Source of the DNA: Escherichia coli
GTDB taxonomy: Bacteria > Pseudomonadota > Gammaproteobacteria > Enterobacterales > Enterobacteriaceae
NCBI RefSeq assembly: GCF_044647545.1
Contig: NZ_CP172818.1
Direction: 5' to 3' (one strand)
DNA: 64,000 nt
Below the pieces are notes generated by a model that worked only from the letters and a program-made list of their open reading frames with translations, had not been told where the DNA came from and made no database searches. The stretch's first letter is position 1, and every line of letters starts with the position of its first letter. Positions 1 through 21,135 of this stretch are shown here, piece by piece. The translations under genes and the position numbers were made by a program.

Positions 1-8
1 TAATAAAA

Positions 9-920: not shown

Positions 921-978
921 CTTTATTGAATAACGACATACCCGGCATGTAGCCTGATATGCCGTTATTTCAGCTCAG

Positions 979-2220
979 TTATTTCGCATTCACGTCCAGC
1001 AGACCCGCCGCAACTGCCGGAGCCAGGCCTGGCGCTAACGGGATACGCGGGATCACCAGGCAATGCAGCAGGTGATAAATATCCTGTTTGCCGTCCCAGA
1101 CTTTGGTGGTGACCTTATTGTCCGCATCCAGCTCCTGCCACCAGGAACCATTTTCATAGTCCATCAGGTACTTAATGCAGTACTCCCACCATGTCTGATA
1201 CCAGGTTTCGTACTGGCGATCGCCGGTGACGGTGTAGAGCGCGTAAGCCGTACCCATCGCCTCGACGATAGGCCAACGCACACGTTCGCGAACGACCGGT
1301 TTTCCTTCCCAGTCAACGGTATAAACAATCCCGTCCGCACCATCGGGCGCCCAGGCATCGCGCACGGTGGCGTTGAACAGACCTTTGGCATCTTCTAACA
1401 GCCAGGCTGGCGGCTGTTCGCCGCGGGCTTCCAGGGCGGCATGGATGTGCAGCATTAAACGACCCCACTCGATCCAGTGGCCTGGCGTGCCTCCGAATGC
1501 GCGGAAGCGGTGCGCCGGGTTATCTTTGTTGTAATCCGGCAGCGGATTCCACTGGGTATCGAAGTGCTCGTTAACGCGATAATGATTATTTCTGGCGACG
1601 TCGTGGATAATGACGGAAGCCACGCGAATCGCGCGATCCAGCCATTTTTTGTCATGGGTGACGTCATAGACAATCAGGAAGGCTTCCACCGCGTGCATAT
1701 TGGCATTGCCGCCGCGATACTCTTCGGTTTTGCTGAAGGCTTCATCCCAGGACTCCAGGCACATCTGCTCTTCTTCGCTCCAGAAGTATTTCTCGATAAT
1801 TTCAATGGTGTAATCGAGCAGCTTGCGCGCTTCCGGGTGACCCGTTGTGACGGCACTGGCGGCACCCAGCAGGGCAAAGAAATGTTGATAGCCCTGTTTG
1901 GAGGCATCCACCACGCCCTCGTCATTCACACAGGCATACCAGCCGCCATATTTTTTATCGCGCAGTGCGCCATTCATGGCTTTGATACCGTGATCAACCA
2001 ACGAGTAAGCGCCAGGGCGGCCCATCGCCGCAGCAACGGAATAAACGTGCAGCATACGGGCGGTGATCCACAGATGCGTGCCCATCTCTTCTTTGATTTG
2101 CCCTTTATTGCCCAGCCAGCCAAAGCCAGTCGGCACCACGGCATTCTTACCAAAATCAAAGATGCGATCGGTTTCCTGTTCCAGCCAGCGGTTGTGACTT
2201 AAGGTGTTAAACCATTTCAT
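979..2220 (-). CDS. yihS: Sulfoquinovose isomerase
   Basis: 413 aa ORF with ATG start, length matches E. coli YihS; conserved synteny. Confidence 0.9.
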
Positions 2221-2235
2221 TTTTGTATCCCCATC

Positions 2236-3114
2236 TTAACGGCGTTTAGCCATCATTTCGTCGACGATATCGCCAAGTTGTTGTAATTTCGGTGCGCAAA
2301 CGTCACGCAGCATCAGCTCGTTGTCTGGTAAACCGACAACCGATGCCCAGACGGCACGACCAGCCAGGAAGCCCGATGCACCCGCTGTCATTGCCACGCG
2401 TACGGCACGCGGGAACAGTTTTTCGTCGACACCGGAAGAAAGTATCACCCACGGCATATTGATATGGTCATTCAGACGTTGTGAAGCACTGAGAAGCTCT
2501 TGTTGCGGACCTTTACCGTAAAGCGGCATTTCAACTTTGTAGAGGTCAGCGCCACTGTCGCCCAGCTCTTTGGCAGCATCGATGATCGCTTGTTCGCGAT
2601 CGAATTTATCGCCACGACGTGGTGGGCGGACGACTGGCTCAATAATGCTTACCAGGCCGTGTGAGTGGCACAGTTCGTTAAACTCTTTCACCATATCCAG
2701 ACGTTGCTGCGCATCTTCATCACTACGCCACAGCACCAGCAGTTTTAAGGCTTTGCCACCGTCTTGTTTGATTTGTAGCGGATTGATTTTGCGGTCAATG
2801 ACCACGCTATCTACCGGAATACCGTTGCCAGGAATGAACTCATCGGCGGCGACAATCATGGCGCAACTTTTGGCAATCGCGTTTTGCTCAACCACCTGGC
2901 GGTAACAGAATTGTTGATCTACCAGAATCGCCGAGGCATAAGGCGAGAGGGTCTTCGCCGCGTTAACTTTGAAATCAGTTAAAACGCTATCGGCTACCGG
3001 AGCGGGTGCGCCAGCCGCGGCAAACATCATGCGCATGGCTTCGCGCTGATCGACCGCCAGCATGGCAAAACCGCCCGATGCGCGCGTAATGTCGTTGATG
3101 GTGTACTTATTCAT
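2236..3114 (-). CDS. yihT: 6-deoxy-6-sulfofructose-1-phosphate aldolase
   Basis: 292 aa ORF, length and synteny match YihT. Confidence 0.9.
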
Positions 3115-3137
3115 TCATTTATTCCTTTATCCAGTCG

Positions 3138-4034
3138 TTACATTTTTACTTTGGCAGTCATCCCGGCACTGACACGGACCTGTTCCAGAATGGCGGACCA
3201 GTCCTGGCGACCGCGACCCGCTGCGCGCGCCTGGCTATAAACCTCCCGTGAGGCGGCCCCCAGCGGCATTGGCACATGCAGCTGGTTGGCGACATCAAGG
3301 GCGATACCAAGATCCTTATGGGCAAGATCGATCATGAAGGCGGGAGAAAGATCCCCGCTGAGGACTTTGTTTGGCCAGGAAGTGGTGAAGTGGCCTTTAC
3401 CGGCGGCGGTACCGCTCATCACCTTGACGGCAACATCGAAGGGAAGATTCAGGGCTTCGCACAAAACGGCGGCTTCTGCCGAAAGCGCATTGAGCGCGAT
3501 GCTCATGTAGTTGTTGATGAGCTTAACGCGGATCCCCATGCCCGGACCGCCCGCGTTGATCAACTCACTGCCCATCGCCATCAGGATCGGTGTGGCGCGT
3601 TCAACTTGTTCAGCGGTGCCGCCAGCCAGCAGTAACAGAGTACCGGTAATGGCATTTGCAGAAGTACGGCCTACCGGAACATCCATCATGCTGAAGCCTC
3701 TGGCCTGCATATCAGCAATCAATTTATCGGTTTGCAGTGGGTGGATGGTCGACATATCAATGACCAGCGCATCGGAAGATAAGCTCTCACAGACACCGTT
3801 TTCACCGAACAACACGTGACGCACCAGATCGCCATTCGGCAACATGGTAATGATAAATTCGGCACCTTTAGCGGCCTGCGCCGGGTTGGCGGCGGGAGTC
3901 GCACCTTTGTCTACCAGATGCCGCACAGCTTCGGCGTTCACATCAAAGACGCGAAGTTGATGCCCTTGCTGCAATAAATTGCTCGCCATTGGCGAACCCA
4001 TTTGCCCTAAACCGATAAACGCGATTGCTGCCAT
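3138..4034 (-). CDS. yihU: 3-sulfolactaldehyde reductase (NAD-binding, GxGxxG at N-terminus)
   Basis: 298 aa ORF starting [13 protein letters not shown] (Rossmann motif); synteny. Confidence 0.9.
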
Positions 4035-4201
4035 AACCCTCTCCTGAATACAGTAATGTCACTTTTTGTCATTTATGACATGCCTTGCTTGTCTGTTTTT
4101 GATCGTATTTGTAATTTATCGTCAAAAAATTGACAGCCGTCACTTTTTAAACAATTGGTGAAATTAAAATGAACGCATCCCAAAATGCTTAAGGAATGAC
4201 C

Positions 4202-5098
4202 ATGATTCGTGTTGCTTGTGTAGGAATTACCGTGATGGATCGCATCTATTACGTGGAAGGATTGCCGACGGAGAGCGGTAAATACGTGGCGAAAAATTAT
4301 ACGGAAGTTGGCGGCGGGCCAGCGGCTACAGCAGCAGTTGCGGCGGCCAGACTAGGTGCGCAGGTCGATTTTATTGGTCGCGTCGGTGACGACGACACAG
4401 GCAACAGCCTGCTGGCAGAGCTGGAATCCTGGGGCGTTAACACCCGTTATACCAAACGGTATAACGAGGCGAAATCTTCGCAATCCGCCATCATGGTGGA
4501 TACCAAAGGCGAGCGGATAATCATTAACTACCCCAGCCCGGACTTGCTGCCTGACGCAGAGTGGTTGGAGGAAATTGATTTCTCTCAGTGGGATGTTGTG
4601 CTGGCGGATGTACGCTGGCACGAAGGTGCTAAAAAAGCCTTCACCCTGGCCCGGCAGGCGGGCGTGATGACTGTTTTGGACGGGGACATTACGCCGCAGG
4701 ATATCAGTGAGCTGGTGGCATTAAGCGATCATGCGGCCTTTTCAGAACCGGGTCTGGCGCGCTTAACGGGGGTGAAAGAGATGGCCAGTGCGCTAAAACA
4801 GGCACAAACGCTCACAAATGGTCATGTCTATGTGACCCAGGGCAGTGCAGGCTGTGACTGGCTGGAGAATGGCGGGCGACAGCATCAACCGGCCTTCAAA
4901 GTTGATGTGGTAGATACCACAGGAGCGGGTGATGTTTTTCACGGCGCATTGGCGGTGGCGCTGGCAACAGGTGGGGATTTAGCGGAGTCAGTCCGCTTCG
5001 CCAGCGGAGTAGCGGCGTTGAAATGCACGCGTCCCGGTGGACGAGCCGGGATCCCTGACTGTGATCAAACCCGATCTTTTTTGTCACTTTTTGTATAA
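4202..5098 (+). CDS. yihV: 6-deoxy-6-sulfofructose kinase (PfkB/ribokinase family)
   Basis: ORF track 4196-5098; trimmed to ATG at 4202 with AAGGA RBS at 4191-4195; C-terminal GAGD motif. Confidence 0.85.
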   Translation: MIRVACVGITVMDRIYYVEGLPTESGKYVAKNYTEVGGGPAATAAVAAARLGAQVDFIGRVGDDDTGNSLLAELESWGVNTRYTKRYNEAKSSQSAIMVDTKGERIIINYPSPDLLPDAEWLEEIDFSQWDVVLADVRWHEGAKKAFTLARQAGVMTVLDGDITPQDISELVALSDHAAFSEPGLARLTGVKEMASALKQAQTLTNGHVYVTQGSAGCDWLENGGRQHQPAFKVDVVDTTGAGDVFHGALAVALATGGDLAESVRFASGVAALKCTRPGGRAGIPDCDQTRSFLSLFV

Positions 5099-5131
5099 AA
5101 TGCCAGGGTGATGGTTTTTCGAGGAATTTTC

Positions 5132-5917
5132 ATGAGCCTTACCGAACTAACCGGTAACCCGCGGCACGACCAACTCCTCATGCTGATCGCCGAGCGTGGG
5201 TATATGAATATTGATGAGCTGGCAAATCTGCTGGATGTCTCCACGCAGACGGTCCGCCGGGATATTCGTAAATTAAGCGAGCAAGGACTGATTACGCGCC
5301 ATCACGGTGGCGCGGGTCGGGCCTCCAGCGTCGTTAATACGGCGTTTGAGCAGCGTGAGGTTTCGCAAACTGAAGAGAAAAAAGCGATTGCCGAAGCGGT
5401 GGCAGACTATATTCCTGATGGATCGACAATATTTATCACCATCGGTACGACTGTTGAACATGTTGCCCGGGCGTTACTTAACCACAATCATTTGCGGATA
5501 ATCACCAACAGCCTGCGTGTGGCGCATATTCTTTACCACAACCCGCGCTTTGAAGTGATGGTGCCTGGCGGAACGCTGCGTTCCCATAACAGTGGGATCA
5601 TTGGCCCTTCAGCGGCGTCCTTTGTGGCCGATTTTCGCGCCGATTATCTGGTAACAAGTGTAGGCGCAATTGAGAGCGATGGCGCGTTGATGGAGTTTGA
5701 TGTAAACGAAGCTAACGTGGTGAAAACGATGATGGCGCACGCGAGAAATATTCTGCTGGTCGCCGATCACACTAAGTATCATGCTTCGGCGGCGGTTGAA
5801 ATTGGTAACGTGGCACAGGTTACCGCGCTCTTTACCGACGAGCTGCCGCCCGCTGCGCTAAAATCACGCTTACAAGACAGCCAAATTGAAATCATCCTTC
5901 CCCAGGAAGACACGTAG
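5132..5917 (+). CDS. csqR: DeoR-family transcriptional regulator of the sulfoquinovose operons
   Basis: ORF track 5108-5917; trimmed to ATG 5132 (GAGGA RBS at 5121-5125) giving 261 aa; N-terminal HTH, DeoR C-terminal domain. Confidence 0.85.
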   Translation: MSLTELTGNPRHDQLLMLIAERGYMNIDELANLLDVSTQTVRRDIRKLSEQGLITRHHGGAGRASSVVNTAFEQREVSQTEEKKAIAEAVADYIPDGSTIFITIGTTVEHVARALLNHNHLRIITNSLRVAHILYHNPRFEVMVPGGTLRSHNSGIIGPSAASFVADFRADYLVTSVGAIESDGALMEFDVNEANVVKTMMAHARNILLVADHTKYHASAAVEIGNVAQVTALFTDELPPAALKSRLQDSQIEIILPQEDT

Positions 5918-6015
5918 AATTTTGTGACCGTTGACCTGCCTTCATACCTGGCCACATAGCCAAACCCATCCTTTCCCGCTACAGTTAATTTCTTGTGGCG
6001 CGAAAGGAGGCAAAA

Positions 6016-6615
6016 ATGCTCTATATCTTTGATTTAGGTAATGTGATTGTCGATATCGACTTTAACCGTGTGCTGGGGGCCTGGAGCGATTTAACGCGTG
6101 TTCCACTGGCTACGCTTAAGAAGAGTTTCCACATGGGCGAGGCGTTTCATCAGCATGAGCGTGGGGAAATTAGCGACGAAGCGTTCGCAGAGGCGCTGTG
6201 TCATGAGATGGCCCTGCCGCTAAGCTATGAGCAGTTCTCCCACGGTTGGCAGGCGGTATTTGTTGCGCTACGACCGGAAGTGATCGCCATCATGCATAAA
6301 CTGCGTGAGCAGGGGCATCGCGTGGTGGTGCTTTCCAATACTAACCGCCTGCATACTACCTTCTGGCCGGAGGAATACCCGGAAATCCGTGATGCTGCTG
6401 ACCATATCTATCTGTCGCAAGACTTGGGTATGCGCAAACCTGAAGCACGAATTTATCAGCATGTTTTGCAGGCAGAAGGTTTTTCACCAGACGATACGGT
6501 CTTTTTCGACGATAACGCCGATAATATAGAAGGAGCTAATCAGCTAGGCATTACTAGTATTCTGGTGAAAGATAAAACCACCATCCCGGACTATTTCGCG
6601 AAGGTGTTATGCTAA
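6016..6615 (+). CDS. yihX: HAD-superfamily alpha-D-glucose-1-phosphate phosphatase
   Basis: ORF track 5995-6615; trimmed to ATG 6016 (AAGGAGG RBS 6004-6010) giving 199 aa; N-terminal DxG HAD motif. Confidence 0.85.
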
Positions 6616-7481
6616 AAACCATTCAGGACAAAGCCAGGCATCGTACCCGTCCACTATGGGCCTGGCTAAAACTACTCTGGCAACGCATTGATGAGGACAA
6701 CATGACAACCCTGGCAGGTAACCTTGCCTATGTGTCGTTGCTCTCATTAGTGCCGCTGGTTGCCGTTGTTTTTGCGCTTTTCGCCGCTTTTCCCATGTTT
6801 TCCGACGTCAGCATTCAGTTGCGTCACTTTATTTTTGCCAACTTTCTGCCTGCTACTGGCGATGTTATTCAGCGGTATATCGAACAATTTGTTGCCAATT
6901 CCAACAAAATGACCGCCGTCGGGGCGTGCGGGCTGATCGTCACGGCGTTATTGTTGATGTACTCCATCGATAGCGCGTTGAATACCATCTGGCGCAGCAA
7001 ACGAGCGCGACCAAAAATTTACTCGTTTGCCGTGTACTGGATGATTTTAACGCTGGGGCCGCTGCTGGCAGGGGCCAGTCTGGCGATCAGTTCCTATCTG
7101 CTCTCCCTGCGCTGGGCGAGCGATCTCAATACTGTCATCGACAACGTGCTGCGTATTTTTCCGCTGCTGTTGTCGTGGATCTCCTTCTGGTTGCTGTACA
7201 GCATTGTTCCTACCATCCGCGTACCTAACCGCGACGCGATTGTCGGCGCGTTTGTCGCTGCACTCCTGTTCGAAGCAGGAAAGAAAGGTTTCGCGCTTTA
7301 TATCACCATGTTCCCGTCATATCAGCTCATTTACGGCGTGCTGGCGGTGATCCCCATTCTCTTTGTCTGGGTCTACTGGACATGGTGTATCGTCTTGCTT
7401 GGCGCGGAAATTACTGTCACTCTCGGGGAATACCGCAAATTAAAACAAGCTGCTGAACAAGAAGAAGACGACGAACCATGA
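6609..7481 (+). CDS. yihY: YihY/BrkB family inner membrane protein
   Basis: 290 aa ORF, multi-pass hydrophobic; overlaps yihX stop (coupled). Confidence 0.85.
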
Positions 7482-7915
7482 TTGCATTAATTCAACGCGT
7501 AACCCGTGCCAGCGTCACCGTGGAGGGAGAAGTGACGGGCGAAATTGGCGCGGGACTTTTGGTGTTATTGGGTGTCGAAAAGGATGACGACGAACAGAAA
7601 GCAAACCGTCTGTGCGAGCGTGTGCTCGGCTACCGCATCTTTAGCGATGCCGAAGGCAAGATGAATCTCAACGTGCAACAGGCGGGCGGCAGTGTACTGG
7701 TGGTTTCCCAGTTTACTCTCGCCGCAGATACCGAACGGGGGATGCGCCCAAGTTTCTCCAAAGGCGCATCACCGGATCGCGCAGAGGCGTTATATGACTA
7801 TTTCGTCGAACGCTGCCGTCAGCAAGAGATGAACACGCAAACAGGACGCTTCGCTGCGGATATGCAGGTATCGCTGGTCAATGATGGCCCCGTGACATTC
7901 TGGTTGCAGGTATGA
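7478..7915 (+). CDS. dtd: D-aminoacyl-tRNA deacylase
   Basis: 145 aa ORF starting [12 protein letters not shown] overlap with yihY. Confidence 0.9.
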
Positions 7916-8901
7916 GCCAGCTTCCAGGGTTGTCACGGGAAACAAGAGAGAGTATCGCTATGTATCACCTTCGGGTTCCACAAACAGAAGAAGAATTAGA
8001 GCGTTACTATCAGTTTCGCTGGGAAATGTTGCGTAAGCCCCTGCATCAACCGAAAGGTTCGGAACGCGACGCGTGGGATGCGATGGCGCATCACCAGATG
8101 GTCGTCGACGAGCAGGGTAATCTGGTGGCGGTAGGCCGACTGTATATTAATGCCGACAATGAAGCGTCCATTCGCTTTATGGCCGTTCATCCCGACGTGC
8201 AGGACAAAGGGTTAGGAACGCTGATGGCGATGACCCTCGAATCTGTGGCGCGTCAGGAAGGTGTTAAGCGCGTGACCTGTAGCGCCCGCGAAGACGCGGT
8301 GGAGTTTTTCGCCAAGCTGGGGTTTGTTAATCAGGGAGAAATCACCACGCCAACCACCACGCCGATTCGCCATTTTTTGATGATTAAACCCGTTGCCACT
8401 CTGGATGATATTTTGCATCGCGGCGACTGGTGCGCGCAGCTGCAACAGGCGTGGTATGAACACATCCCGCTGAGTGAAAAAATGGGCGTGCGCATTCAGC
8501 AATATACCGGGCAAAAATTTATCACCACCATGCCGGAAACAGGCAATCAGAATCCGCATCACACGCTGTTTGCCGGGAGTTTATTCTCGCTGGCAACGCT
8601 CACCGGTTGGGGGCTTATCTGGCTGATGCTGCGCGAACGCCACCTCGGCGGAACGATTATTCTGGCGGATGCGCATATCCGCTATAGCAAGCCGATTAGC
8701 GGCAAACCTCATGCGGTAGCCGACCTTGGTGCCTTAAGCGGCGATCTCGACCGTCTGGCGCGTGGACGAAAAGCACGGGTGCAGATGCAAGTAGAAATCT
8801 TTGGCGACGAGACGCCGGGTGCAGTGTTTGAAGGCACGTATATCGTTCTGCCCGCGAAGCCATTTGGCCCGTATGAAGAGGGCGGGAACGAAGAAGAGTA
8901 G
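7912..8901 (+). CDS. yiiD: GNAT acetyltransferase / thioesterase fusion protein
   Basis: 329 aa ORF; overlaps dtd stop; length matches YiiD. Confidence 0.85.
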
Positions 8902-9750
8902 CGTTGGCAGGTGCATTGCACTCCTTGCCCCTGTCATGCGGTGATACAACGCTTCACCTTCATCGCAAAGTGGGTCGTATTCAGCGGTAATGATATGTAC
9001 AGGTGGCAAGCCATTGAAATCATCGCGCCAAAGAGGGCTGGCTTCAGGATGCCTGCGTTCAATGCCTGGCAGGTACATCTCAAAGCCGCTCAGTAAAGTG
9101 TCGCGTGTGATGATGTAATCGTGACGATTGCGTATGTAGCTTTCGAAATGCGCAGTCGCATCAAGCATGGGATAAATTAAGATGACCGAGTTGTGCCGGT
9201 TGCCACTCGCCAGCACGCTTTAATCGCAAAGCAGTTACCAGCGCCAGATGTCCGCCCGCACTGTCACCGGCAAGAGTTATCCGTTGTTTATCAACGCCGA
9301 GTCGTTCGGCGTGTTGCCGACTGAATTCTGCACCTCGTTGCGCATCATCATGGGCGGCGGGGAAAGTATGTCCGGTGCCAGCCGATACTGGACGGCAATA
9401 ACCCGACATTGCCCGTAATAGGCTAACTGGCGCAGCTGGTTGTCGTGAGTTGCGAACCCGCCGCTAACAAAACAGCCACCGTAGTAATAAATTATCGTCG
9501 GGAGTAATGTCGGGGCATTCAGCGGTGACACTATTCGTAAGGTCATCGCTTCAAGTTCGATAGTCTGAATATCTACCCGCGTTTCTGTCTCACCCGCAAG
9601 GACAGCGCTGGCGATATAGCCCTCCCTGCGCTGCGCAATACTTTGTTGACGCGATGAGGGGCGACCCGCAGCGATAAACTCTTCGACTAACTCTGCAATT
9701 CCTTTTTCAGTGCCATAGTAGAACTCATTTTGCTGTATGAATGTACAGTT
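8734..9750 (-). pseudogene. Alpha/beta-hydrolase (Aes/HSL-family esterase-lipase) remnant, frameshifted at ~9372 and ~9188, no start codon in the N-terminal frame, 3' end overlapping yiiD
   Basis: HGGG-region (IIYYYGGCFVSGG) in ORF 9277-9546, GDSAGG nucleophile motif in ORF 9161-9409, DPLCDEGE acid motif in ORF 8734-9216, each in a different frame on the minus strand. Confidence 0.6.
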
Positions 9751-9945
9751 TTATACACCCGTTTTTACTGGATGGATACAGGGAAATTCACGGGCGTGAA
9801 AAATCTGGAAAGCGCCTCGCAAATGTAAAGACAAACCCGGCAGAGATGTGGTTTTGCTGGAGCACTATCAGTAAGCTAGTGGTTTCAAGGGTACGTCAAT
9901 GACGTACAGAAGGGGTTTATTTATCTAAGCCAATGGCGTATAATT

Positions 9946-10256
9946 ATGCTCTTCATCGAAACGGAAATTTTTACTGAAGATGTTCAAAAACTGCTGACCG
10001 ACGATGAATTCAGTCGTTTTCAGTTTTTCCTGGCCTTGAATCCTGACTATGGTGAGGTAATACCTGAAACTGGTGGGTTAAGAAAGGTTCGATGGGTGTC
10101 AGGAGGAAGGGGAAACGTGCTGGTGTCAGGGTTATTTACTTTCATCAGGTTAAACATTATGAGATCAGATTACTGCTTATTTATCGTAAGGGTATTAAAG
10201 ATAATATCTCTCCCCAGGAAAAAGCAATGCTCCGGTTGTTAAATACGAGGTGGTAA
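9946..10256 (+). pseudogene. HigB/RelE-like type II toxin, inactivated by a 1-nt deletion in an A-run at ~10113-10116
   Basis: ORF 9946-10242 turns to nonsense after GGRG; shifting +1 at the A-run restores KRAGVRVIYFHQVKHYEIRLLLIYRKGIKDNISPQEKAMLRLLNTRW ending at TAA 10254-10256, 0 nt before the antitoxin ATG. Confidence 0.6.
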
Positions 10257-10547
10257 ATGGATAAGGCACTTTTTGAGCGGTTGACTCACAGCATGGCCCA
10301 GATGAATGAAATTATTGAAGGAACGCGACAGCCTTCGCGGACTTTTGAAGTTGATGCTATGAAAATCAAAGAAATACGCCGCGCTTCAGGGTTGTCACAA
10401 TCTAAATTTGCCGATCTTATTTCTGTAAGCGTAGACACGTTGCGTAACTGGGAGCAGGGGCGACGTTCGCCGACCGGGCCTGCAAAGGCTTTGCTGCGAG
10501 CGATTGCCAATGATCCGCAACATGTGCTGCAAGCACTTAACCGTTAG
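10257..10547 (+). CDS. XRE-family HTH antitoxin-like DNA-binding protein (HigA-like partner)
   Basis: 96 aa ORF; HTH region IRRASGLSQSKFADLISVSVDTLRNWEQGRRSP; immediately downstream of the toxin remnant. Confidence 0.65.
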   Translation: MDKALFERLTHSMAQMNEIIEGTRQPSRTFEVDAMKIKEIRRASGLSQSKFADLISVSVDTLRNWEQGRRSPTGPAKALLRAIANDPQHVLQALNR

Positions 10548-11150
10548 AGGCATGGTTATGCCATACAGAAAGCACCAGCATTCAGAACTCCTGTGAAAGC
10601 GGCGTAGTGCCACCTGCTCAGGAGTTTTGCTATGACCCGTAATCAGTGCTGACCGTTGCCACCCTATGATGCGATTAAAAAAACTCATCGTCGCGCCGAT
10701 GATTGACGTCAATGCTATCGGATGATACCGGGGGTGTTCCAGAAAGATCCAACTTTCCCGAACTGTTACCAACAAAATTATAACGATGAGCAAGTTAAGA
10801 CCGGTTGGTAGCAGTACTGACCGGTCTGTGATGGATGATTAATTTCACCTTAAATCCGGGTGCTGTTAGGATGCTGACATTTTTCGGCTACACCATTCAG
10901 ATTATGCAAATAAAGATCCAATCAAAAAATAAACATCCCTGTATATAATATATTTATAGCACCCATATCTCATCCTGGGCGATAACCCAACCATTTTTGA
11001 TTAACAAATGAAACAACTGCAACGTTCTTATTATTTCTGGAAAACGTCTCGCAAAAACAAAACAGCATGCAAAAATCCGCTTTTTTTAAATGATTTTTCG
11101 GCGTAATTTTCGCACATACATTAATGAGTAATATATGTAAGGTATTGGTA

Positions 11151-11369
11151 ATGGCGATGAATACGGTTTTTCTTCATTTATCAGAAGAGGCAATTAAACG
11201 GCTGAACAAGCTTAGGGGCTGGCGTAAGGTTTCACGATCTGCAATTTTACGCGAAGCGGTTGAGCAATATCTGGAGCGGCAGCAATTTCCGGTGCGTAAA
11301 GCAAAGGGTGGCAGGCAAAGGGGGGAGACAGTAGTTGTTGATGATCAGTGTAAGGAGCATAAGGAATGA
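11151..11369 (+). CDS. Small ribbon-helix-helix (CopG-like) protein, 72 aa, yiiE/yiiF family
   Basis: ORF track 11124-11369; trimmed to ATG 11151 to give 72 aa; N-terminal VFLHLSEEAIKRLNKL resembles RHH beta-strand/helix. Confidence 0.55.
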   Translation: MAMNTVFLHLSEEAIKRLNKLRGWRKVSRSAILREAVEQYLERQQFPVRKAKGGRQRGETVVVDDQCKEHKE

Positions 11370-11578
11370 CAAAAAATTTATTATTCTTGAATATAAAAAC
11401 CAGATGCCCTTATTCTGGTATTAATACAAGGCTGTTTTACTTGAACTTATAATAACTGCAACTGTTACATCATATCTGGAAAACGCCTCGCGAAATACGA
11501 GAGTTTGGAATAGCAGGTGTCGTCATACCCTATGAACTGTAATCCGGGCGACCAGCGCCACCCGGAAAACGTCAGAGA

Positions 11579-12508
11579 TTACTCCCCTTCACCCGGAAAC
11601 AGGAACGGGTTGATGGAACTACGGGCATAGCCTTCTTGCTCCATTCGCGCGTCCAGTACCAGAGAGGCGAGGTCATCTGCCACGGCTTCAACTTTCGGTT
11701 CTTTTTCCTGATAAAGAATCTTCAGGTAAGTGCCGCAGTCATCGCAGCTTTCGGCTTTAATCGCGGCCTGTTCGTCATCCAGCGACCAGTAATGCAGTTT
11801 GCCGCTTTGTTCACAGTTGCTGCATTTTACGCGTACTACGTGCCATTCAGTTTCACACAGGTTGCAGTGCAGGTAACGCAGCCCCTGAGTGGTGCCAATT
11901 TGCACCATGCTGGACACCGGCATAGAACCACAAACCGGGCAATATTGACGTTGTTCGCCATATTCCGCACGCGCTTTGCCGGGGATCAGATTGGCCATCT
12001 GCGCCCAGTAGAGCGACAGTGCAGCCCAGATAAACGGCGCTTTATCGCTGCTGACGGACGAGAAATCAGAGGCAAACAGTGCGCTGGCCATATCTTCCAG
12101 CTCCTGAGTCGATGCCTTCTCCAGATTCTCAATCACTGCCAGCGCCGGGCCGCTCATTTCAGGTTTCAGCTCAGCAATCAGCGCCATCAGCAGCTTTTGC
12201 CAGTGCTTATCACGCGGCAGAACGTGAATATCCAGCGGGGGCTTGCCTTGTGCGCTGGCTTCTTTAATGCGCGTGGTCAGATCCATCTCCAGCGGATGGT
12301 CGTACAGCACCACTTCCTGGGCGTGGGCGATAAGCGCAGCAAAGCGCAGGTAATCACCCAGCGGATTATTTTCTGCCAGCTCGCGCAGACGCTCGGCGCG
12401 GCGGTTGTATAAATTCTTGAGCCGAGGGAACAATAACGGCGGAATCATATCCGCCGTACGTTTCTCGCTCGAACCCAGCTCATCTTGCGGGATTATGCGA
12501 ATACTCAT
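11579..12508 (-). CDS. fdhE: Formate dehydrogenase accessory protein FdhE
   Basis: 309 aa ORF with paired CxxC motifs; synteny downstream of fdoI. Confidence 0.9.
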
Positions 12509-13140
12509 TCAGCTTTCTTTTCCGTTGTCTTGCGGACCTCACGGTACCAGCGCGGGTGATGTTTCTTCGCCCAGGCGCTGGTAACCCATCCTTCCACCAT
12601 GGCGGTAATCGTGCCTTTCACCCAAAGGGCGGCGTAGATATGCACCATGATAACCACAATTAACGCCACTGCGGCAAATGAATGCAGCATTAACGCGAAT
12701 CGGATCACCGGGATTGAGAAAGCAGGTGCAAAATAAGGACGCCAGATAATCACGCCGCTCACCAGCAGCAGAACCAGGAAAATAATCGCCGCCCAGAAAA
12801 CGCATTTCTGACCGAAGTTATAACGCCCGGTGTCACCTACTTCCTCGTTGACGACGATCTTACGAATATTCTTCGCCCAAAAGATATCATCCCGATTGAT
12901 TAGGTTGTGATGCCAGTAACGGAAAAACATGATGATGAACGAGGCAAACATAACCACGCCGACAAACGGGTGCAGAATGCGCGCCAGCTGCGGTGTGCCC
13001 ATGATTTGCATCAACCAGTTGAAGGACGGGAACAAAAAGCCCAGCCCGCTCACCGCCGCCAGGATGAAGCAGAAGGCGGTGATCCAGTGGTTGATACGTT
13101 CCGGCGCGGTGTAGCGCACGATGGTGTCACGTCGTTTCAT
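12505..13140 (-). CDS. fdoI: Formate dehydrogenase-O cytochrome b556 subunit
   Basis: 211 aa membrane ORF; 4-nt overlap with fdhE and fdoH. Confidence 0.9.
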
Positions 13141-14039
13141 TTGCGCTCCTCGTCTTTCTCTTCGTGCAGATTATTCTCTTCCTCATCCGCACGGTTCGGA
13201 CCGACACCCACGTAGTGGAAGATACTGGCCGCAAAGGTAGCCGCAAAGCCAACAGCCGCGAGCGGTTTCCAGATGCCTTTCCAGAATTTCACGGTTTCGC
13301 TGATTTCCGGGTTCTCCGGCAAGCCATGATACAGATTTGGCTTGTCAGCATGGTGCAGCACGTACATAACATGTGTACCACCGACGCCTGCCGGGTCGTA
13401 CAAACCCGCATTGTCGTAACCACGGGTTTTCAGCTCCGCCACGCGCTCGCTCGCCAGCGTTTTCATCGACTCTTTCGTACCGAAGTGAATCGCGCCCGTT
13501 GGGCAGGTCTTCACGCAGGCCGGTTCTTGCCCAACCACCACGCGGTCAACGCACAACGTACATTTGTAGACGCGGTTGTCTTCCGGGTTGAGGCGCGGAA
13601 TGTCGAACGGACAGCCCGCAATGCAATAACCGCAGCCGATGCACTGCTCGGACTGGAAGTCGACGATACCGTTGGCATACTGAATAATTGCCCCTTCCGC
13701 CGGGCACGCTTTCAGGCAGCCTGGATCGGAACAGTGCATACAGCCGTCTTTGCGGATCAGCCATTCCAGTTTGTCGTTCTGCTCCACTTCCGAGAATCGC
13801 ATCACCGTCCACGATTTGGCACTTAAATCATTGGGGTTGTCGTACACCCCAATGTTATTGCCGACGGTATCGCGAATGTCGTTCCACTCTGAACACGCCA
13901 CCTGACAGGCTTTACAGCCGATACAGGTGGTAACGTCGATGAGTTTCGCCACTTCTTCCTGGAAGTCCCGCGCCTGAGGCGCGGGGGTCAGACCGTTAGT
14001 CGCGGAACGACGAATGATATCTTGCGATTGATAAGCCAT
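13137..14039 (-). CDS. fdoH: Formate dehydrogenase-O iron-sulfur subunit
   Basis: 300 aa ORF with multiple CxxCxxCxxxCP ferredoxin motifs. Confidence 0.9.
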
Positions 14040-14051
14040 ATGTCGTCTCCG

Positions 14052-17000
14052 TTACACCTTTTCCACATTCACAAGGAAGGACTTAAACTCCGGCGTCTGC
14101 GTGTTCGCATCACCCACGAATGGCGTTAACGTATTGGCAATAAAGCCTTTTTTCGCAACGCCTTCATAGCCCCAGTGAATCGGAATACCGATGGTATCGA
14201 TATCTTTGCCGTTCGCTTTCAGCGTGCGAATACGTTTGGTCACCACCGCTTTGGCTTTGATATAGCCACGGTTGGAGGAGACTTTCACAGTATCGCCCTG
14301 GGCAATGCCAAGTTTATTCGCCAGCGACTCCCCGATTTCCACAAACTGCTCTGGTTGCAAAATCGCATTCAACAGCGCGTGTTTGGTCCAGTAGTGGAAG
14401 TGCTCGGTCAGACGATAGGTGGTTCCGACATACGGGAACTTATCGGCTTTACCCAATGCTTCGGCGTCGTCTTTAAAGATACGCGCAGCCGGGTTCGAGA
14501 TAACGTTTGGATGCAGCGGGTTAGTTCCCAGCGGCGTTTCAAACGGCTCGTAGTGTTCCGGGAACGGACCTTCCGCCATCTTATCGAGGGCAAACAGACG
14601 TCCCATGCCTTCCTGCTGCATGATAAACGGCCCTACGCCGCTGCCCGGAGGCGCTGCGCTGTAGTCCGGAATATCCCAGCCGGTCCACTTAGTGCCGTCC
14701 CATTTCAGCAACTGACGCTTCGGATCCCATGGGTTACCCTGCGGATCTGCGGAGGCGCGGTTATACAGAATGCGGCGGTTAAGCGGCCATGCCCATGCCC
14801 AGCCCAGCGTGTTACCGAGGCCAGACGGATCGGCGTTATCACGACGCGCCATCTGGTTACCTTCTGGCGTCCAGCTACCGGCGAAAATCCAGCAGCCACA
14901 GGAGGTCGTACCGTCATCGCGCAGTTGGGCGAACGAGCTAAGTTGTTGGCCTTTCTTGACGATAACCGCACCGGTTGCCGGATCGGTAATATCGGCCAGC
15001 GCCTTACCGTTGCTCTCCATCGCCACTTCTTCCGACTTCGGCTCATGCGGAATGGCGTAGTTCCAGGTCATATTCAGCACCTGGTCCGGGTTTGCGCCAC
15101 CCTGTTCGGCATACATCTTGCGCAAGCGCAGGAAGATACCGGAGAGGATCTCGCCATCAGTCAGCGCAATCCCTGGGGCGTCCGCACCTTTCCAGTGCCA
15201 CTGTAACCAGCGACCGGAGTTAACGATTGAACCGTTCTCTTCTGCGAAGCAAGTCGATGGCAGACGGAACACTTCGGTCTGGATCTTCGACGAGTCAACT
15301 TCGTTCAGCTCACCGTGGTTCTGCCAGAAGTTAGAGGTTTCAGTGTTCAGCGGGTCGATGGTGACGAGGAACTTCAGTTTCGACAGACAGCCGATCACTT
15401 TGTTTTTGTTCGGGAATGAGGCAACAGGGTTAAAGCCCTGGCAGATATAGCCATTGACCTTGCCCTCTTTCATCATCTCGAAGTATTGCAGGACGTCGTA
15501 GCCTTTATCCCACTTCGGCAACCAGTCAAAGCCCCAGTTATTTTCCGCCGTCGCTTTATCACCAAAGAAGGCCTTCATCATGGAGACGAAGAATTTCGGG
15601 TAATTGCCCCAGTAGTTAACCTGGCCTTCCAGCAGTGGTTTCGGCGTGTTGGCGGTAAGGTAAGTTTGCAGATCGGTCTGCTTCTCGCTTGGCAACGTCA
15701 TGTAACCTGGCAGACTCTGCGACAGCAGCCCCAGGTCGGTCAGCCCCTGAATATTGGAGTGACCGCGCAGGGCGTTAACGCCGCCGCCAGCCATCCCCAT
15801 ATTGCCGAGCAGCAGCTGGATCATCGCCATCGTACGAATGTTTTGCGCACCAATGGAGTGTTGCGTCCAGCCGAGGGCGTAGAGGAACGACGCTGTTTTA
15901 TCGTGAGCACTGGTTTCGGCGATGTATTCGCAGACTTTCAGGAACGCGTCTTTTGGCGTACCGCAGATGTTTTCAACCACATCTGGCGTATAACGGGAAA
16001 CGTGCTGTTTCAGCAAGTTCCACACGCAACGTGGATGTTGCAGCGTGGTATCGCGTTTGGCGAAGCCGTTTTCGTCCAGTTCGTAAGTCCAGGAGGATTT
16101 ATCGTACTTGCGTTTTTCCGCGTCGTAGCCGGTGAACAGGCCATCTTCAAAGCCGTAATCCTCACGCACGATCAGGCTGGCGTTGGTATAGGCTTCGGTG
16201 TATTCGCGGTTGAATTTTTCATTGTTCAGCAGGTACAGCAATACGCCTGACAGGAAAGCAATGTCAGTCCCGGAACGAATAGGGGCATAGTAGTCAGCCA
16301 CCGCCGCCGTACGTGTAAAGCGAGGATCGATCACAATCAGCTTCGCGCCGTTGTGAATTTTGGCTTCCATCGCCCAGCGGAACCCGACCGGGTGAGCTTC
16401 AGCGGCGTTACCGCCCATCACCACGACGAGGTTGGCATTCTTGATGTCGACCCAGTGGTTGGTCATCGCACCGCGACCAAATGTTGGAGCAAGACTTGCT
16501 ACCGTTGGTCCGTGTCAGACACGCGCCTGGTTGTCGACCGCGAGCATACCCAGCGCGCGGGAGAATTTTTGCGTTAAATAGCCGGTTTCGTTACTCGACG
16601 CGGAAGCACACAGCATCCCGGTGGAGAGCCAGCGGTTAACAGTCACGCCTTCGGCGTTTTGCGCAATGTAGTTCGCATCGCGGTCTTCTTTCATCAGTTT
16701 GGCGATGCGATCAAACGCCTCTTCCCAACTGATTTGTTGCCATTTATCAGAACCTGGCGCACGGTATTCCGGAAACTTCAGGCGGCTTTCGGAGTGGATG
16801 AAATCCACCAGGCCAGCGCCTTTCGGACAAAGTGCTCCGCGGTTGACCGGGTGATCCGGGTCACCTTCGATATGGAAGATAGATGCTTTGGCGTTTTTTG
16901 CTCCGTCACCGAGGCTGTACATCAACAGCCCACAGCCTACGGAACAATAGGTGCAGGTATTACGGGTTTCGCGGGTGCGCAGCAGTTTATACTGCCGGGT

Positions 17001-17102
17001 TTCCGCGAGTGCTACGCTGGGTGCAAAACCCAGTGCCGCTGCCGTGGTGCCTGCCATACCGCCAGCGCAGATCTTAAAGAACTGCCTTCTGCTGACCTGC
17101 AT
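14052..17102 (-). CDS. fdoG: Formate dehydrogenase-O catalytic subunit, selenocysteine-containing (in-frame UGA at 16515-16517), Tat signal
   Basis: ORFs 16515-17102 and 14052-16466 are in the same frame separated only by TGA; context ARV-U-HGPTVA; N-terminal RRQFFK twin-arginine motif; total 1016 aa. Confidence 0.9.
16470..16514 (-). promoter_or_regulatory. Putative SECIS stem-loop immediately 3' of the fdoG UGA
   Basis: mRNA CACGGACCAACGGUAGCAAGUCUUGCUCC follows UGA and contains the inverted repeat AGCAAG/CUUGCU; position expected for bacterial SECIS. Confidence 0.45.
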
Positions 17103-17295
17103 GGATTGCTCCTTGTTTCGACATTGTCACGTCCCATTTACATTCGCTTGCTGCGTGTGCAGGGAGTGGGAGTTATTTTTCTTTGCGGAAGGGGCCGCAA
17201 AGGTCCAGAATTGGCTCAATTTCCCTCCATCCAGGAAGGGTTTGTAACAGAATACCATAATGTTGGTGTGTGTGTTCTTATCTGGTTAAGAGAAA

Positions 17296-18129
17296 GTGAA
17301 AAAAACACAGCAAAAAGAAATCGAAAATGTGACAAGTGTCACAGGTGTTCGTCAAATTGAGTTATGGCGGCGTGATGATTTACAACACCCACGGTTAGAT
17401 GAGGTGGCGGAAGAGGTTCCCGTTGCGCTGGTCTACAACGGCATTTCGCATGTAGTGATGATGGCGTCACCCAAAGACCTTGAGTACTTTGCGCTCGGTT
17501 TTTCGCTTTCCGAGGGGATTATCGAAAGTCCGCGCGATATCTTCGGTATGGATGTCGTTCCTTCCTGTAATGGTCTGGAAGTGCAAATTGAGCTTTCCAG
17601 CCGCCGCTTTATGGGGTTGAAGGAGCGTCGCCGGGCACTGGCGGGACGTACGGGATGTGGCGTGTGCGGCGTGGAGCAACTTAATGACATCGGAAAACCG
17701 GTGCAGCCGCTACCGTTCACCCAGACGTTTGATCTCAACAAACTGGATGATGCATTACGTCATCTCAATGATTTTCAGCCAGTGGGGCAACTGACCGGTT
17801 GTACTCACGCCGCCGCCTGGATGTTGCCATCTGGCGAACTGGTCGGCGGGCATGAAGACGTGGGTCGCCATGTGGCGCTGGACAAACTGTTAGGCCGCCG
17901 GTCACAAGAAGGGGAAAGCTGGCAGCAAGGTGCGGTGCTGGTTTCCAGCCGTGCCAGTTATGAAATGGTGCAAAAGTCAGCGATGTGTGGCGTAGAGATT
18001 TTGTTTGCGGTGTCTGCCGCGACCACGCTTGCCGTAGAAGTGGCTGAGCGCTGTAATCTGACACTGGTAGGTTTTTGTAAACCGGGTCGGGCAACGGTTT
18101 ATACCCATCCGCAGCGTTTGAGCAATTAA
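17296..18129 (+). CDS. fdhD: Formate dehydrogenase sulfurtransferase FdhD
   Basis: 277 aa ORF divergent from fdoG. Confidence 0.9.
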
Positions 18130-18136
18130 TTAAAAT

Positions 18137-18180
18137 AAGTCCTGCGAGATATATTAAATTGCAGGACTTATTCATTTCGT
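18137..18180 (+). terminator. Rho-independent terminator after fdhD
   Basis: Inverted repeat AAGTCCTGC...GCAGGACTT followed by T-rich run. Confidence 0.5.
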
Positions 18181-18281
18181 GAATTTTATTATTTTATTTA
18201 TAAACAAAACGCGTGTAGTGGCGTTTTCTTTTTTCATTTATTATGTTCACTCTCTTATCTATATATTTATAAGGCAATTAA

Positions 18282-19337
18282 ATGAAAAGGAATTTATTAT
18301 CTTCCGCTATTATAGTCGCCATCATGGCCCTCGGTCTCACGGGTTGTGATGATAAAAAAGCCGAAACAGAAACGCCCCCGCCTGCCAATAGTCAACCTGC
18401 CGCACCAGCTCCTGAAGCGAAACCTGCTGAAGCTCCCGTTGCAAAAGCAGAAGTTAAACCTGAAACGCCTGCCCAACCGGTGGTCGATGAACAAGCGGTT
18501 TTCGACGAAAAAATGGATGTCTATATCAAGTGCTACAACAAGTTACAGATCCCGGTACAGCGCAGTCTGGCGCGTTATGCTGACTGGCTGAAAGATTTTA
18601 AACAGGGGCCTACCGGTAAAGAGAGTACTGTTTATGGCATCTACGGCATTAGTGAATCCAGCCTCGCTGAGTGTGAAAAAGGCGTAAAAAGTGCTGTGGC
18701 GTTAACGCCTGCGCTGCAACCTATTGATGGCGTAGCGGTGAGTTATATCGATGCTGCCGTGGCGTTGGGTAATACCATTAACGAAATGGATAAATATTAC
18801 ACCCAGGAAAATTATAAAGACGATGCGTTTGCGAAAGGGAAAACGCTGCACCAGACATTCTTAAAAAATCTGGAAGCCTTTGAACCTGTAGCCGAATCTT
18901 ATCATGCGGCGATCCAGGAAATTAATGATAAGCGTCAGCTTGCGGAACTGAAAAATATTGAAGAAAGAGAAGGGAAAACATTCCACTACTATTCTCTGGC
19001 AGTCATGATTTCAGCGAAACAAATTAATAACCTGATATCGCAAGAGAAGTTTGATGTTGATGCGGCAATGAAGAAAGTGTCTGAACTGGAAACGCTGGTG
19101 GCGCAGGCCAAAGAAGCGGATAAAGGCGGCATGAATTTCTCGTTTATTAATTCGGCAGGCCAGTATCAACTCGAGGCTAAAAAATACGTTCGCCGCATCA
19201 GAGATAAAGTCCCGTACTCTGACTGGGATAAAGAGCAACTTCAGGACGCAAACTCAAGCTGGATGGTCGAAGACTCTTTCCCGAGAGCATTACGCGAGTA
19301 CAACGAAATGGTCGATGATTATAATCGCCTGCGTTAA
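18282..19337 (+). CDS. yiiG: Lipoprotein of unknown function (signal peptide with LTGC lipobox)
   Basis: 351 aa ORF; N-terminal MKRNLLSSAIIVAIMALGLTGC; synteny. Confidence 0.8.
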   Translation: MKRNLLSSAIIVAIMALGLTGCDDKKAETETPPPANSQPAAPAPEAKPAEAPVAKAEVKPETPAQPVVDEQAVFDEKMDVYIKCYNKLQIPVQRSLARYADWLKDFKQGPTGKESTVYGIYGISESSLAECEKGVKSAVALTPALQPIDGVAVSYIDAAVALGNTINEMDKYYTQENYKDDAFAKGKTLHQTFLKNLEAFEPVAESYHAAIQEINDKRQLAELKNIEEREGKTFHYYSLAVMISAKQINNLISQEKFDVDAAMKKVSELETLVAQAKEADKGGMNFSFINSAGQYQLEAKKYVRRIRDKVPYSDWDKEQLQDANSSWMVEDSFPRALREYNEMVDDYNRLR

Positions 19338-19358
19338 ACGTTTTTGATGATAAATGCA

Positions 19359-19383
19359 GTGTCGGATGCGGCGCATCCGACAC
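19359..19383. terminator. Bidirectional hairpin terminator between yiiG and frvR
   Basis: Perfect inverted repeat GTGTCGGATGCG/CGCATCCGACAC between convergent genes. Confidence 0.5.
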
Positions 19384-19386
19384 AGT

Positions 19387-21135
19387 TCACCCCTTGTGAA
19401 GTAACTCCATAAATGCCTCATATCCTGTTAACCCGGCAATAACCTCTGCCGGATGCTGACACAATACGCTTGCCAGATAGCTAAATATTTTTAGCTCATG
19501 ACGCGCATCGGCGGCGGCGCAGGCGATCAAAACATGGTTAATGACTTCGTTATTCACCTCAACTGATTGGGCGAGGGTAATAAAAAATCCACGAAAACGT
19601 CGCTCCTGTTCGCTCCAGCAATGTGGGATGGCGAGGCGATTAACAATCAGGTTTTCACCTTCGCCTTCGCGGGCGATGATCCGTTGCGCTTCATCGGCGG
19701 TAATATGGTGTTGTGCGACTAATTGAGCACAAATTTGCCGGGTAATATGTTGCCAGCTTTCACCGCGTACATTCGAATAATGAAAACTTCCGGGGGCAGA
19801 GAAAAAACGCTCCGGTTGCCGGCGAATAAACGCCGTCGCCAGAAAATGTTTTATTTGTTCGATACCGGCGGCAGTAATAATGTTTTTTACGGTGATGCAA
19901 TTATTGACCGCATCATCCAGTAAATAATGGCTGTTATTAATGATCAATAACGGCTCAATCTCTTCGCGAATGGCAACCAGTTCGCTTACGCTGCGGGCAA
20001 TAATCACCCGACAATTCAGGACATCGCGCTCAATGGCGAGCTGATTAATAGTAGCAATCGCGTTCTGATCAGAGAGCAAAATGATCGGCTGGCGTTCGTT
20101 TTGATGCCGTTCCAGCGCACAGGCAAAATACAAACCAATCAGATCGCTGTCGAAAAGGGGAATATCGAGTTGTTCACGCAGTAGCGTAATAAAGTGCAGA
20201 CTCATATCAAAGGCCGCAGGCCAGGCGGCTTTCAGGTTATTCATGCTGCTTTGGCGGTGCTCGGCAATCCACACCGGTGCGGCAAGGCAACGTAATAAAT
20301 GCCCGGTAATATTCTCAACCAACTGCGTATCAATAATATTCAATGACGCGATGCCTGGCACCCTTTGCAGCAACCCCAGCACATGATCGGCAGAAATTAC
20401 CTGCGCTTGCTGATGCTGTTTCTCTATCAAACCTGTCAGGGTTCTTACAGCGTTATCACCAAGAAACAGGCCGCTCTGTTCAACGATTTGTTTTATCTCG
20501 TCACCGGGATATTGCGGCCACTCATCGGTCAGTTGATTACGCAGGGCGTAAATCGCCAGAATCAGGCTTGAGAGATAGTCGCCTTGCATCAGCGGCCAGC
20601 GACGTTGCTTTTCGCAGGCGGTGGTTAATTGTTGAAAATTGTCTCGTGTTACGCCCGACAGCGGAATTAAAAACGGATCTTTGCGTAAAAGATTCGCCAG
20701 CAAAATAATGCGTTTCTCTTCTGTCTCATCAATGAAATGGCCCAAACCAGGGCGACTAGCGAGACAAAAACCGCGTTCATAGCGCTGTTTCAGGCGGGGC
20801 AGGCGCTCTGCTACCCACGTTTCTGGCAAATTAAGCGCCGAGGCGAGTTGCGCACGGGGAGTGAAGGTATTCAGTAATAACAGCGCCAGCAGCCGATCGT
20901 CGTTATCGTGCTTTTGCAGCAACTGAAAAAAGCTGCGGCGCTCGAAGATTTCCAGCTGATAGCCCGCGTTGCCACTGGCGGAAATGCGGGCTTTGCCGTT
21001 AAGGGTAAAGTTGAGATAGTCAATATCACGCAGGATGGTCCTGCCGGAAACGCCAGTCTGTTGCGCCAGCTCGCCAGGCGTGCGTGGCTGTTGCTTCAGC
21101 AGATCGACAATCTTTAACTGGCGTTCGTTTAGCAT
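19387..21135 (-). CDS. frvR: Frv operon transcriptional regulator (HTH plus PTS regulation domains)
   Basis: 582 aa ORF; synteny with frvXBA. Confidence 0.85.
   Translation of the reverse strand: MLNERQLKIVDLLKQQPRTPGELAQQTGVSGRTILRDIDYLNFTLNGKARISASGNAGYQLEIFERRSFFQLLQKHDNDDRLLALLLLNTFTPRAQLASALNLPETWVAERLPRLKQRYERGFCLASRPGLGHFIDETEEKRIILLANLLRKDPFLIPLSGVTRDNFQQLTTACEKQRRWPLMQGDYLSSLILAIYALRNQLTDEWPQYPGDEIKQIVEQSGLFLGDNAVRTLTGLIEKQHQQAQVISADHVLGLLQRVPGIASLNIIDTQLVENITGHLLRCLAAPVWIAEHRQSSMNNLKAAWPAAFDMSLHFITLLREQLDIPLFDSDLIGLYFACALERHQNERQPIILLSDQNAIATINQLAIERDVLNCRVIIARSVSELVAIREEIEPLLIINNSHYLLDDAVNNCITVKNIITAAGIEQIKHFLATAFIRRQPERFFSAPGSFHYSNVRGESWQHITRQICAQLVAQHHITADEAQRIIAREGEGENLIVNRLAIPHCWSEQERRFRGFFITLAQSVEVNNEVINHVLIACAAADARHELKIFSYLASVLCQHPAEVIAGLTGYEAFMELLHKG

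Follow-up and report, generated by a model that had tools for sequence, protein, structure and literature searches.

The window analysed here, a 64,000-nucleotide stretch of an Escherichia coli genome (NZ_CP172818.1), carries at 9946-10547 an E. coli chromosomal copy of the HigB-2/HigA-2 type II toxin-antitoxin operon. Its toxin gene is broken by a one-base deletion, probably an artefact of sequencing or assembly. The system is already known, whether or not the deletion is real: the HigB-2/HigA-2 family has been characterised structurally and mechanistically, and annotations of this very pair exist in thousands of E. coli genomes. Our analysis carries one caution, namely that frameshift and pseudogene calls in 8895-11507, 24253-25143 and 26425-26721 of this record are not readable as genome decay without the reads, and one small positive, that an operator-like palindrome at the E. 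coli locus shares its half-sites and spacing with the HigA2 operator of V. cholerae.

A HigB-2/HigA-2-type operon between fabY and yiiE

Around 9946-10547 the genes run yihY, dtd, fabY, an accessory island, yiiE and fdhE-fdoIHG, and the backbone of the window is identical to that of ST648-lineage E. coli genomes such as FDAARGOS_497 (NZ_CP033850.1). The fabY-yiiE island is about 2 kb long, and of the 5426 complete E. coli genomes about half (2630-2645) carry it. K-12 is without it and has unrelated sequence in its place, with K-12 homology restarting at window position 10750. The features of the locus are as follows.

8902-10749, no strand assigned: accessory island that separates the fabY stop (8901) from the region upstream of yiiE and holds the hydrolase remnant, higB-2 and higA-2/nadS
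8902-9716, minus strand: alpha/beta hydrolase remnant, an intact 909-nt CDS (WP_001318161.1) in relatives
9891-9907, no strand assigned: GTACGTCA-A-TGACGTAC, a perfect palindrome and putative operator for HigA-2/NadS, 39-55 nt before the ATG of the toxin
9946-10256, plus strand: higB-2 toxin gene, PF06296 'RelE' family, frameshifted as written (ORF as written 9946-10242)
10107-10108, plus strand: missing-A site in codon 55 (AAG), AAA in all relatives and AA in the window
10203-10208, plus strand: private three-substitution patch in the toxin, D87N and L88I, GATGATCTG to GATAATATC
10257-10547, plus strand: higA-2/nadS antitoxin, 96 aa, intact, with GAGG 7 nt upstream of its ATG

In relatives (E. 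coli DFL.5, FDAARGOS_497) the toxin's place is occupied by an intact orthologue, a 312-nt CDS encoding the 103-residue protein WP_000897305.1, which is annotated either as 'hypothetical protein' or as 'type II toxin-antitoxin system RelE/ParE family toxin'. It is directly followed by 'nadS: NadS family protein' (WP_000356397.1), and upstream of it, on the opposite strand, lies the alpha/beta hydrolase gene. The sole literature trace for the origin of the name 'NadS' was nadS expression in K-12 BW25113, and because K-12 is without the fabY-yiiE island, that nadS is a paralogue elsewhere.

The toxin translation repaired at the missing base matched the V. cholerae HigB-2 chains in the PDB over residues 2-98 (phmmer, E = 1e-18 to 6e-18), and since the repaired protein finds this homologue at E = 1e-18, the reconstruction is far beyond chance. 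Identity to VcHigB2 was 41% without gaps over 95 residues (BLASTP, E = 1e-23). Mutagenesis of VcHigB2 identified R51, R64, Y82 and K84 as its catalytic residues (PMC5416850); these align with R49, R62, Y80 and K82 of the repaired toxin, all four of them kept. The profile search of the corrected translation (RelE/ParE/HigB) that the original prediction had proposed returned, next to the PDB match, a weak match to Pfam PF06296 'RelE' (i-E = 6e-4, residues 43-101). No NCBIfam model matched the toxin, and the HigB-like toxin family of the Rts1/K-12 type gave no match to it in Pfam or PDB searches. UniRef names the pair Toxin HigB-2 and Antitoxin HigA-2. The module had been predicted to be of the higBA type, and taken together PDB, Pfam, NCBIfam and UniRef place it in the HigB-2/HigA-2 subfamily.

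Structures of the V. cholerae HigB-2/HigA-2 pair are available (PDB 5JA8, 5JA9, 5JAA, 8A0X; PMC5416850, PMC11006873). [quoted passage not shown] HigA-2 would also repress the operon at a single inverted repeat, which in the window would be GTACGTCAATGACGTAC at 9891-9907. No experimental test of toxicity, neutralisation or operator binding by the E. coli pair was found in the literature searched.

One base is missing from the toxin frame as written

The ORF that starts at ATG 9946 encodes MLFIETEIFTEDVQKLLTDDEFSRFQFFLALNPDYGEVIPETGGLRKVRWVSGG (MLFIETEIF...VSGG); beyond that point it is out of frame, and it terminates at 10242. ORF 10092-10256, in a second frame, encodes KRAGVRVIYFHQVKHYEIRLLLIYRKGIKDNISPQEKAMLRLLNTRW and ends in a TAA (10254-10256) that abuts the antitoxin ATG at 10257, bearing out the predicted toxin-first layout for the ancestral frame. 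Alignment to the intact orthologue showed exactly one base missing inside the toxin gene, the reference reading GGAGGAAAGGGGAAACG and the window GGAGG-AAGGGGAAACG. The original prediction of a single-base deletion is thus right about the frame as written, which is broken at codon 55 by one missing base, and finds no support as biology. Its position was also misplaced: the deletion had been assigned to the A-run at 10113-10115, whereas the actual loss lies six bases upstream, in the AAA run at 10107-10108, and the ancestral frame picks up after 10108. The ancestral protein accordingly reads SGGKGKRAG (K55) and not SGGRGKRAG; apart from this R55, the earlier reconstruction of the toxin was correct. 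From PMC5416850 and our alignment, the missing-A site falls in a loop equivalent to the disordered, basic beta2-beta3 loop of VcHigB2.

Of the four catalytic residues, the product as written would have only R49 left; R62, Y80 and K82 would be gone, together with everything from strand beta3 on. Judged from the alignment, the toxin as written would be incapable of activity.

An internal ATG at 10092 opens the ancestral downstream frame as a 54-aa ORF running to 10256, with a weak AAAGG 4-5 nt upstream, and its product would be a C-terminal toxin fragment. The two-frame arrangement might on this basis be functional, either by a programmed +1/-1 ribosomal frameshift at GGAGGAAGGGGAAAC or as a split toxin started from ATG 10092, and the overlap between the 9946-10242 and 10092 ORFs would suit such a scheme, as would the start codon and its AAAGG. 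Against it, the toxin lies in a single frame in all 2630 other genomes and the two-frame form shows no conservation anywhere; translation from 10092 would yield a product without the N-terminal helices and R49, and no frameshift-stimulating element was seen in the window. We consider the chance that the two frames are functional close to negligible.

The deletion was found in this record only

Using a 62-nt query against the 5426 complete genomes, we found the deletion in 0 of 2630 other E. coli genomes that carry the locus, and every best match was at 98.4% with a one-base gap. An exact 31-mer over the deletion had 0 matches in JGI metagenome contigs and 0 in GTDB representative genomes. By exact protein look-up, both frameshift ORFs were absent from a collection of ~15 billion proteins, as was the repaired toxin carrying the window's D87N/L88I (the DNIS allele); the common intact toxin is present in the same collection on at least 1000 contigs. 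The DNIS patch in the toxin was in no E. coli genome searched (best match 96.7%), and neither were the right-junction patch (10741-10753) and the upstream patch (9909-9923). The window's hydrolase fragments were likewise absent from the ~15 billion proteins, in which its fabY and yiiE products were present. Because none of the other genomes, metagenome contigs or protein records searched shares the deletion, an artefact is probable.

A different lesion of the same toxin was seen in E. coli APEC37 (NZ_CP127303.1, QRM68_RS08340; locus L006, 1770-2082), where an extra C near codon 88 independently frameshifts the gene and both nadS and the hydrolase are intact. PGAP annotates this toxin lesion as 'frameshifted'. 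It shows that natural inactivation of this toxin does happen, a point against an artefact in the window.

Toxin pseudogenes beside intact antitoxins are a familiar pattern. The deletion might accordingly be real, in which case the fabY-yiiE island would be decaying (hydrolase truncated and frameshifted, toxin frameshifted) and an orphan HigA-2/NadS would be left. APEC37, with its own toxin frameshift beside an intact nadS, fits such a course, and so does the position of the lesion, since AAA to AA within a homopolymer is a natural slippage event too. The same allele, however, is missing from every collection searched, whether complete E. coli genomes, JGI metagenomes, GTDB representatives or the ~15 billion proteins. 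We regard a real deletion as possible and rather doubtful, and further evidence that bears on it is given with the neighbouring changes and with the antitoxin below.

Private changes cluster in a 2.6-kb segment

We used NZ_CP033850.1 (ST648-lineage) as the comparison reference for the window. Positions 1-8901 and 11508-24252 were 100% identical to it, and 26722-64000 showed a single substitution (34803) when a REP cluster and a missing rhs element are set aside. In all, ~16 changes are private to the record and all of them fall in 8895-11507 (2.6 kb), against one substitution relative to ST648-lineage genomes in the ~57 kb remainder. Within the segment are one deletion of 160 bp, about a dozen short indels and three patches in which several bases are substituted. 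The 160-bp deletion, between AAG(A)GTAG microhomologies (left junction, 8895), took away the 3' end of the hydrolase gene and the fabY-hydrolase spacer, and the hydrolase frame is further broken by at least five private indels (+C at 8928, +GACC at 9184, -A/+G at 9319/9323, -T at 9370 and -C at 9707). The right island junction (10741-10753) is hybrid, part ST648 allele (CCGGAAGGAATTCCTTGTTTCCC) and part sequence of island-less K-12 (TAGAAAAACAACTTTCCC). At 11504-11507, private 2-nt and 3-nt deletions sit exactly at the yiiF insertion point of K-12-type versus ST648-type genomes.

Import of a divergent island allele was considered as a source of these changes and rejected. In a four-way alignment the window has the ST648 base wherever the ST648 island allele departs from two other alleles, sharing all ST648-specific bases and adding private changes only; because it keeps the ST648 base at these allele-differing sites, the extra changes are private additions and not a recombined foreign allele. 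With import from a diverged donor excluded, a real toxin deletion would have to be one of ~16 private events in 2.6 kb beside one substitution in ~57 kb, which is beyond what relaxed selection alone would give. Relaxed selection would offer no explanation here, since the flanks have kept thousands of synonymous sites without change.

Localised hypermutation over the 2.6-kb segment, for example through error-prone repair, would account for the tight clustering of the private changes and for the multi-base patches among them. It runs against the lack of any known mechanism that would place mixed indels, patches and a hybrid junction exactly at structural-variation boundaries, and against the non-biological corruption seen at other variable sites of the same record, and we hold it to be extremely unlikely. 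All of the private changes being real, with a local burst of mutation or decay destroying hydrolase and toxin while selection keeps the antitoxin and operator as an orphan regulator or anti-addiction factor, appears very unlikely.

An artefact remains the reading we favour, and the deletion being one of ~16 private changes clustered in 8895-11507 is a second reason to think it probable. The private patches all coincide with structural-variation boundaries or fall between them (8895, 10741-10753, 11504-11507, the porin gene, the REP cluster and 59291/59299). Gap filling or reference-guided joining across accessory DNA may have introduced errors at such junctions; the intact WP_000897305.1 allele would then be the real gene, and the stretch in the window would be one that the assembly resolved poorly.

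The record is corrupted at other sites

The clearest artefact in the window is at 24253-25115, where a porin gene loses single bases at a rising rate and ends in A/G-rich junk. Relatives have the carbohydrate porin WP_000749944.1 over 24253-25143, to which the junk aligns with mounting drop-outs, mostly of C and T. The A/G-rich low-complexity part spans 24527-25115 (~590 nt; 259 A, 216 G, 62 T, 52 C), and clean sequence is back abruptly at 25116. Scored as a subsequence of the porin gene, the A/G junk reached 515, a modest excess over the shuffle maximum of 505 on what is a crude measure; base drop-out is shown by the explicit alignment of junk to porin and not by this score. The stretch 24253-25143 looks like the tail of a poor read taken as consensus, and non-biological. 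Since the same record is plainly corrupted here, at 24253-25115, an artefact in the toxin gene is the more probable, and artefacts proven elsewhere in the record speak against a real deletion.

The errors in the island nevertheless differ in kind: they are mixed indels and substitution patches at ~1/150 nt, unlike the pure drop-out at 24253-25115 and 26425-26721, and this counts against an artefact in the toxin gene.

Three other sites of the record were noted. At 26425-26721, the REP/BIME cluster that separates rhaD from rhaA has lost about 20 single bases (G, T) relative to NZ_CP033850.1. At 59291-59299, a ~7.4 kb rhs element (rhsC, ybfB, RHS fragments and IS1; located rpmE-yiiX in the ST648 lineage) is missing between flanks that are 100% identical, which may reflect either a true deletion or a collapse in the assembly. 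The rhaT gene (31739-32539, minus strand) is cut to a 266-aa ORF; it is also 'frameshifted' in NZ_CP033850.1, which is identical to the window there, and this pseudogene is common to relatives, unlike the toxin frameshift.

An intact antitoxin behind a candidate operator

The antitoxin was predicted to be intact, and 10257-10547 indeed encodes the full-length protein, identical to WP_000356397.1 with one synonymous change at 10469. The exact protein is present on at least 1000 contigs in the ~15 billion protein collection, where it is named 'Antitoxin HigA-2' or 'NadS family protein'. It scored 60.7 bits against the NCBIfam NadS equivalog over residues 5-89, barely passing the cut-off of 60. 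Residues 31-90 form an HTH-XRE DNA-binding domain, of which residues 31-89 matched the PDB HigA-2 HTH (E = 1.8e-8 to 1.8e-7). Before the HTH lies a 30-residue N-terminal extension that is inside the NadS profile match, and the VcHigA2 PDB alignment stops short of it; by analogy, the N-terminal part of the antitoxin would be the toxin-neutralising region.

The palindrome at 9891-9907 does not differ between the window and intact relatives, and GTACG-N7-CGTAC occurs once in the 64-kb window against 0.02 expected. The footprinted operator of V. cholerae HigA2 is TGTACGC-N5-GCGTACA (PMC11006873), to which the window palindrome is equal in half-sites and centre spacing, and we consider it a candidate operator by sequence. 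A promoter scan of the window returned no passing site. In the intact reference it returned one 10/12 site, TTGTTA-16-TATAAT, with the -10 ending 1 nt before the ATG, where 1.7 were expected by chance. Between palindrome and toxin start, seven private changes are packed into 15 nt (9909-9923), a patch that alters the TTGTTA (-35) hexamer. Promoter loss through this patch was considered and no conclusion was drawn, the site count being no above-chance result and the geometry a misfit to the start codon.

These elements bear on the doubtful case of a real deletion. If the deletion were real, the antitoxin should still be made and repress the operon, because it has its own GAGG, the palindrome is intact and the ORF as written stops 14 nt upstream of the antitoxin ATG, so that antitoxin translation need not suffer. 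An orphan HigA-2/NadS would then go on repressing the promoter from which it is made, and it could neutralise HigB-2-type toxins that arrive from outside. In favour of a real deletion are also the single synonymous change in the antitoxin and the survival of its GAGG Shine-Dalgarno sequence along with the palindrome. Yet the antitoxin is not spared to a statistically significant degree: its 291 nt hold one change where ~2.5-4.5 would be expected from the local density (Poisson P ~0.06 to 0.3), and its intactness is not evidence for selection. An orphan antitoxin with a regulatory role, as originally suggested, is possible and finds no support in the data in hand.

Comparison with known systems

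The pair resembles MqsR/MqsA in its toxin-first order and in an antitoxin HTH like that of TIGR03830. Membership of the MqsA family (TIGR03830) was considered and rejected: the antitoxin scored 39.1 bits against a 61.8-bit cut-off, over the HTH part only, and it has no zinc-binding CxxC N-terminal domain, its N-terminal 30 residues containing no cysteines. HigB-HigA of Rts1 and E. coli K-12 shares the toxin-first order, a RelE-superfamily ribosome-dependent RNase and an HTH antitoxin (PMC5416850; bioRxiv 10.1101/2025.01.28.635273). It differs from the window pair in that its toxin belongs to a different Pfam family (HigB-like toxin) and its antitoxin neutralises by a route other than a disordered N-terminal segment.

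Among E. coli copies, the window pair has the same island, neighbours and antitoxin protein as WP_000897305.1/WP_000356397.1, but its toxin is without one A and carries three substitutions (D87N, L88I), all private to the record. With APEC37 it shares, at this locus, disruption of the HigB-2 toxin next to a nadS that is intact; there, by contrast, the lesion is an extra C near codon 88 and the hydrolase is intact.

The V. cholerae HigB-2/HigA-2 pair belongs to the Vibrio superintegron, whereas the window pair is in an E. coli chromosomal island and has its toxin frameshifted in this record. The antitoxin match to the V. cholerae structure covers residues 31-89 only, outside the N-terminal segment, and the V. 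cholerae operator spans -35 to -10, whereas the window palindrome lies upstream of the sole promoter-like hexamers found. In common, the two pairs have a toxin-first operon, a toxin 41% identical over 95 residues with 4/4 catalytic residues, an antitoxin HTH matching at E = 1.8e-8, and GTACG/CGTAC half-sites 7 nt apart.
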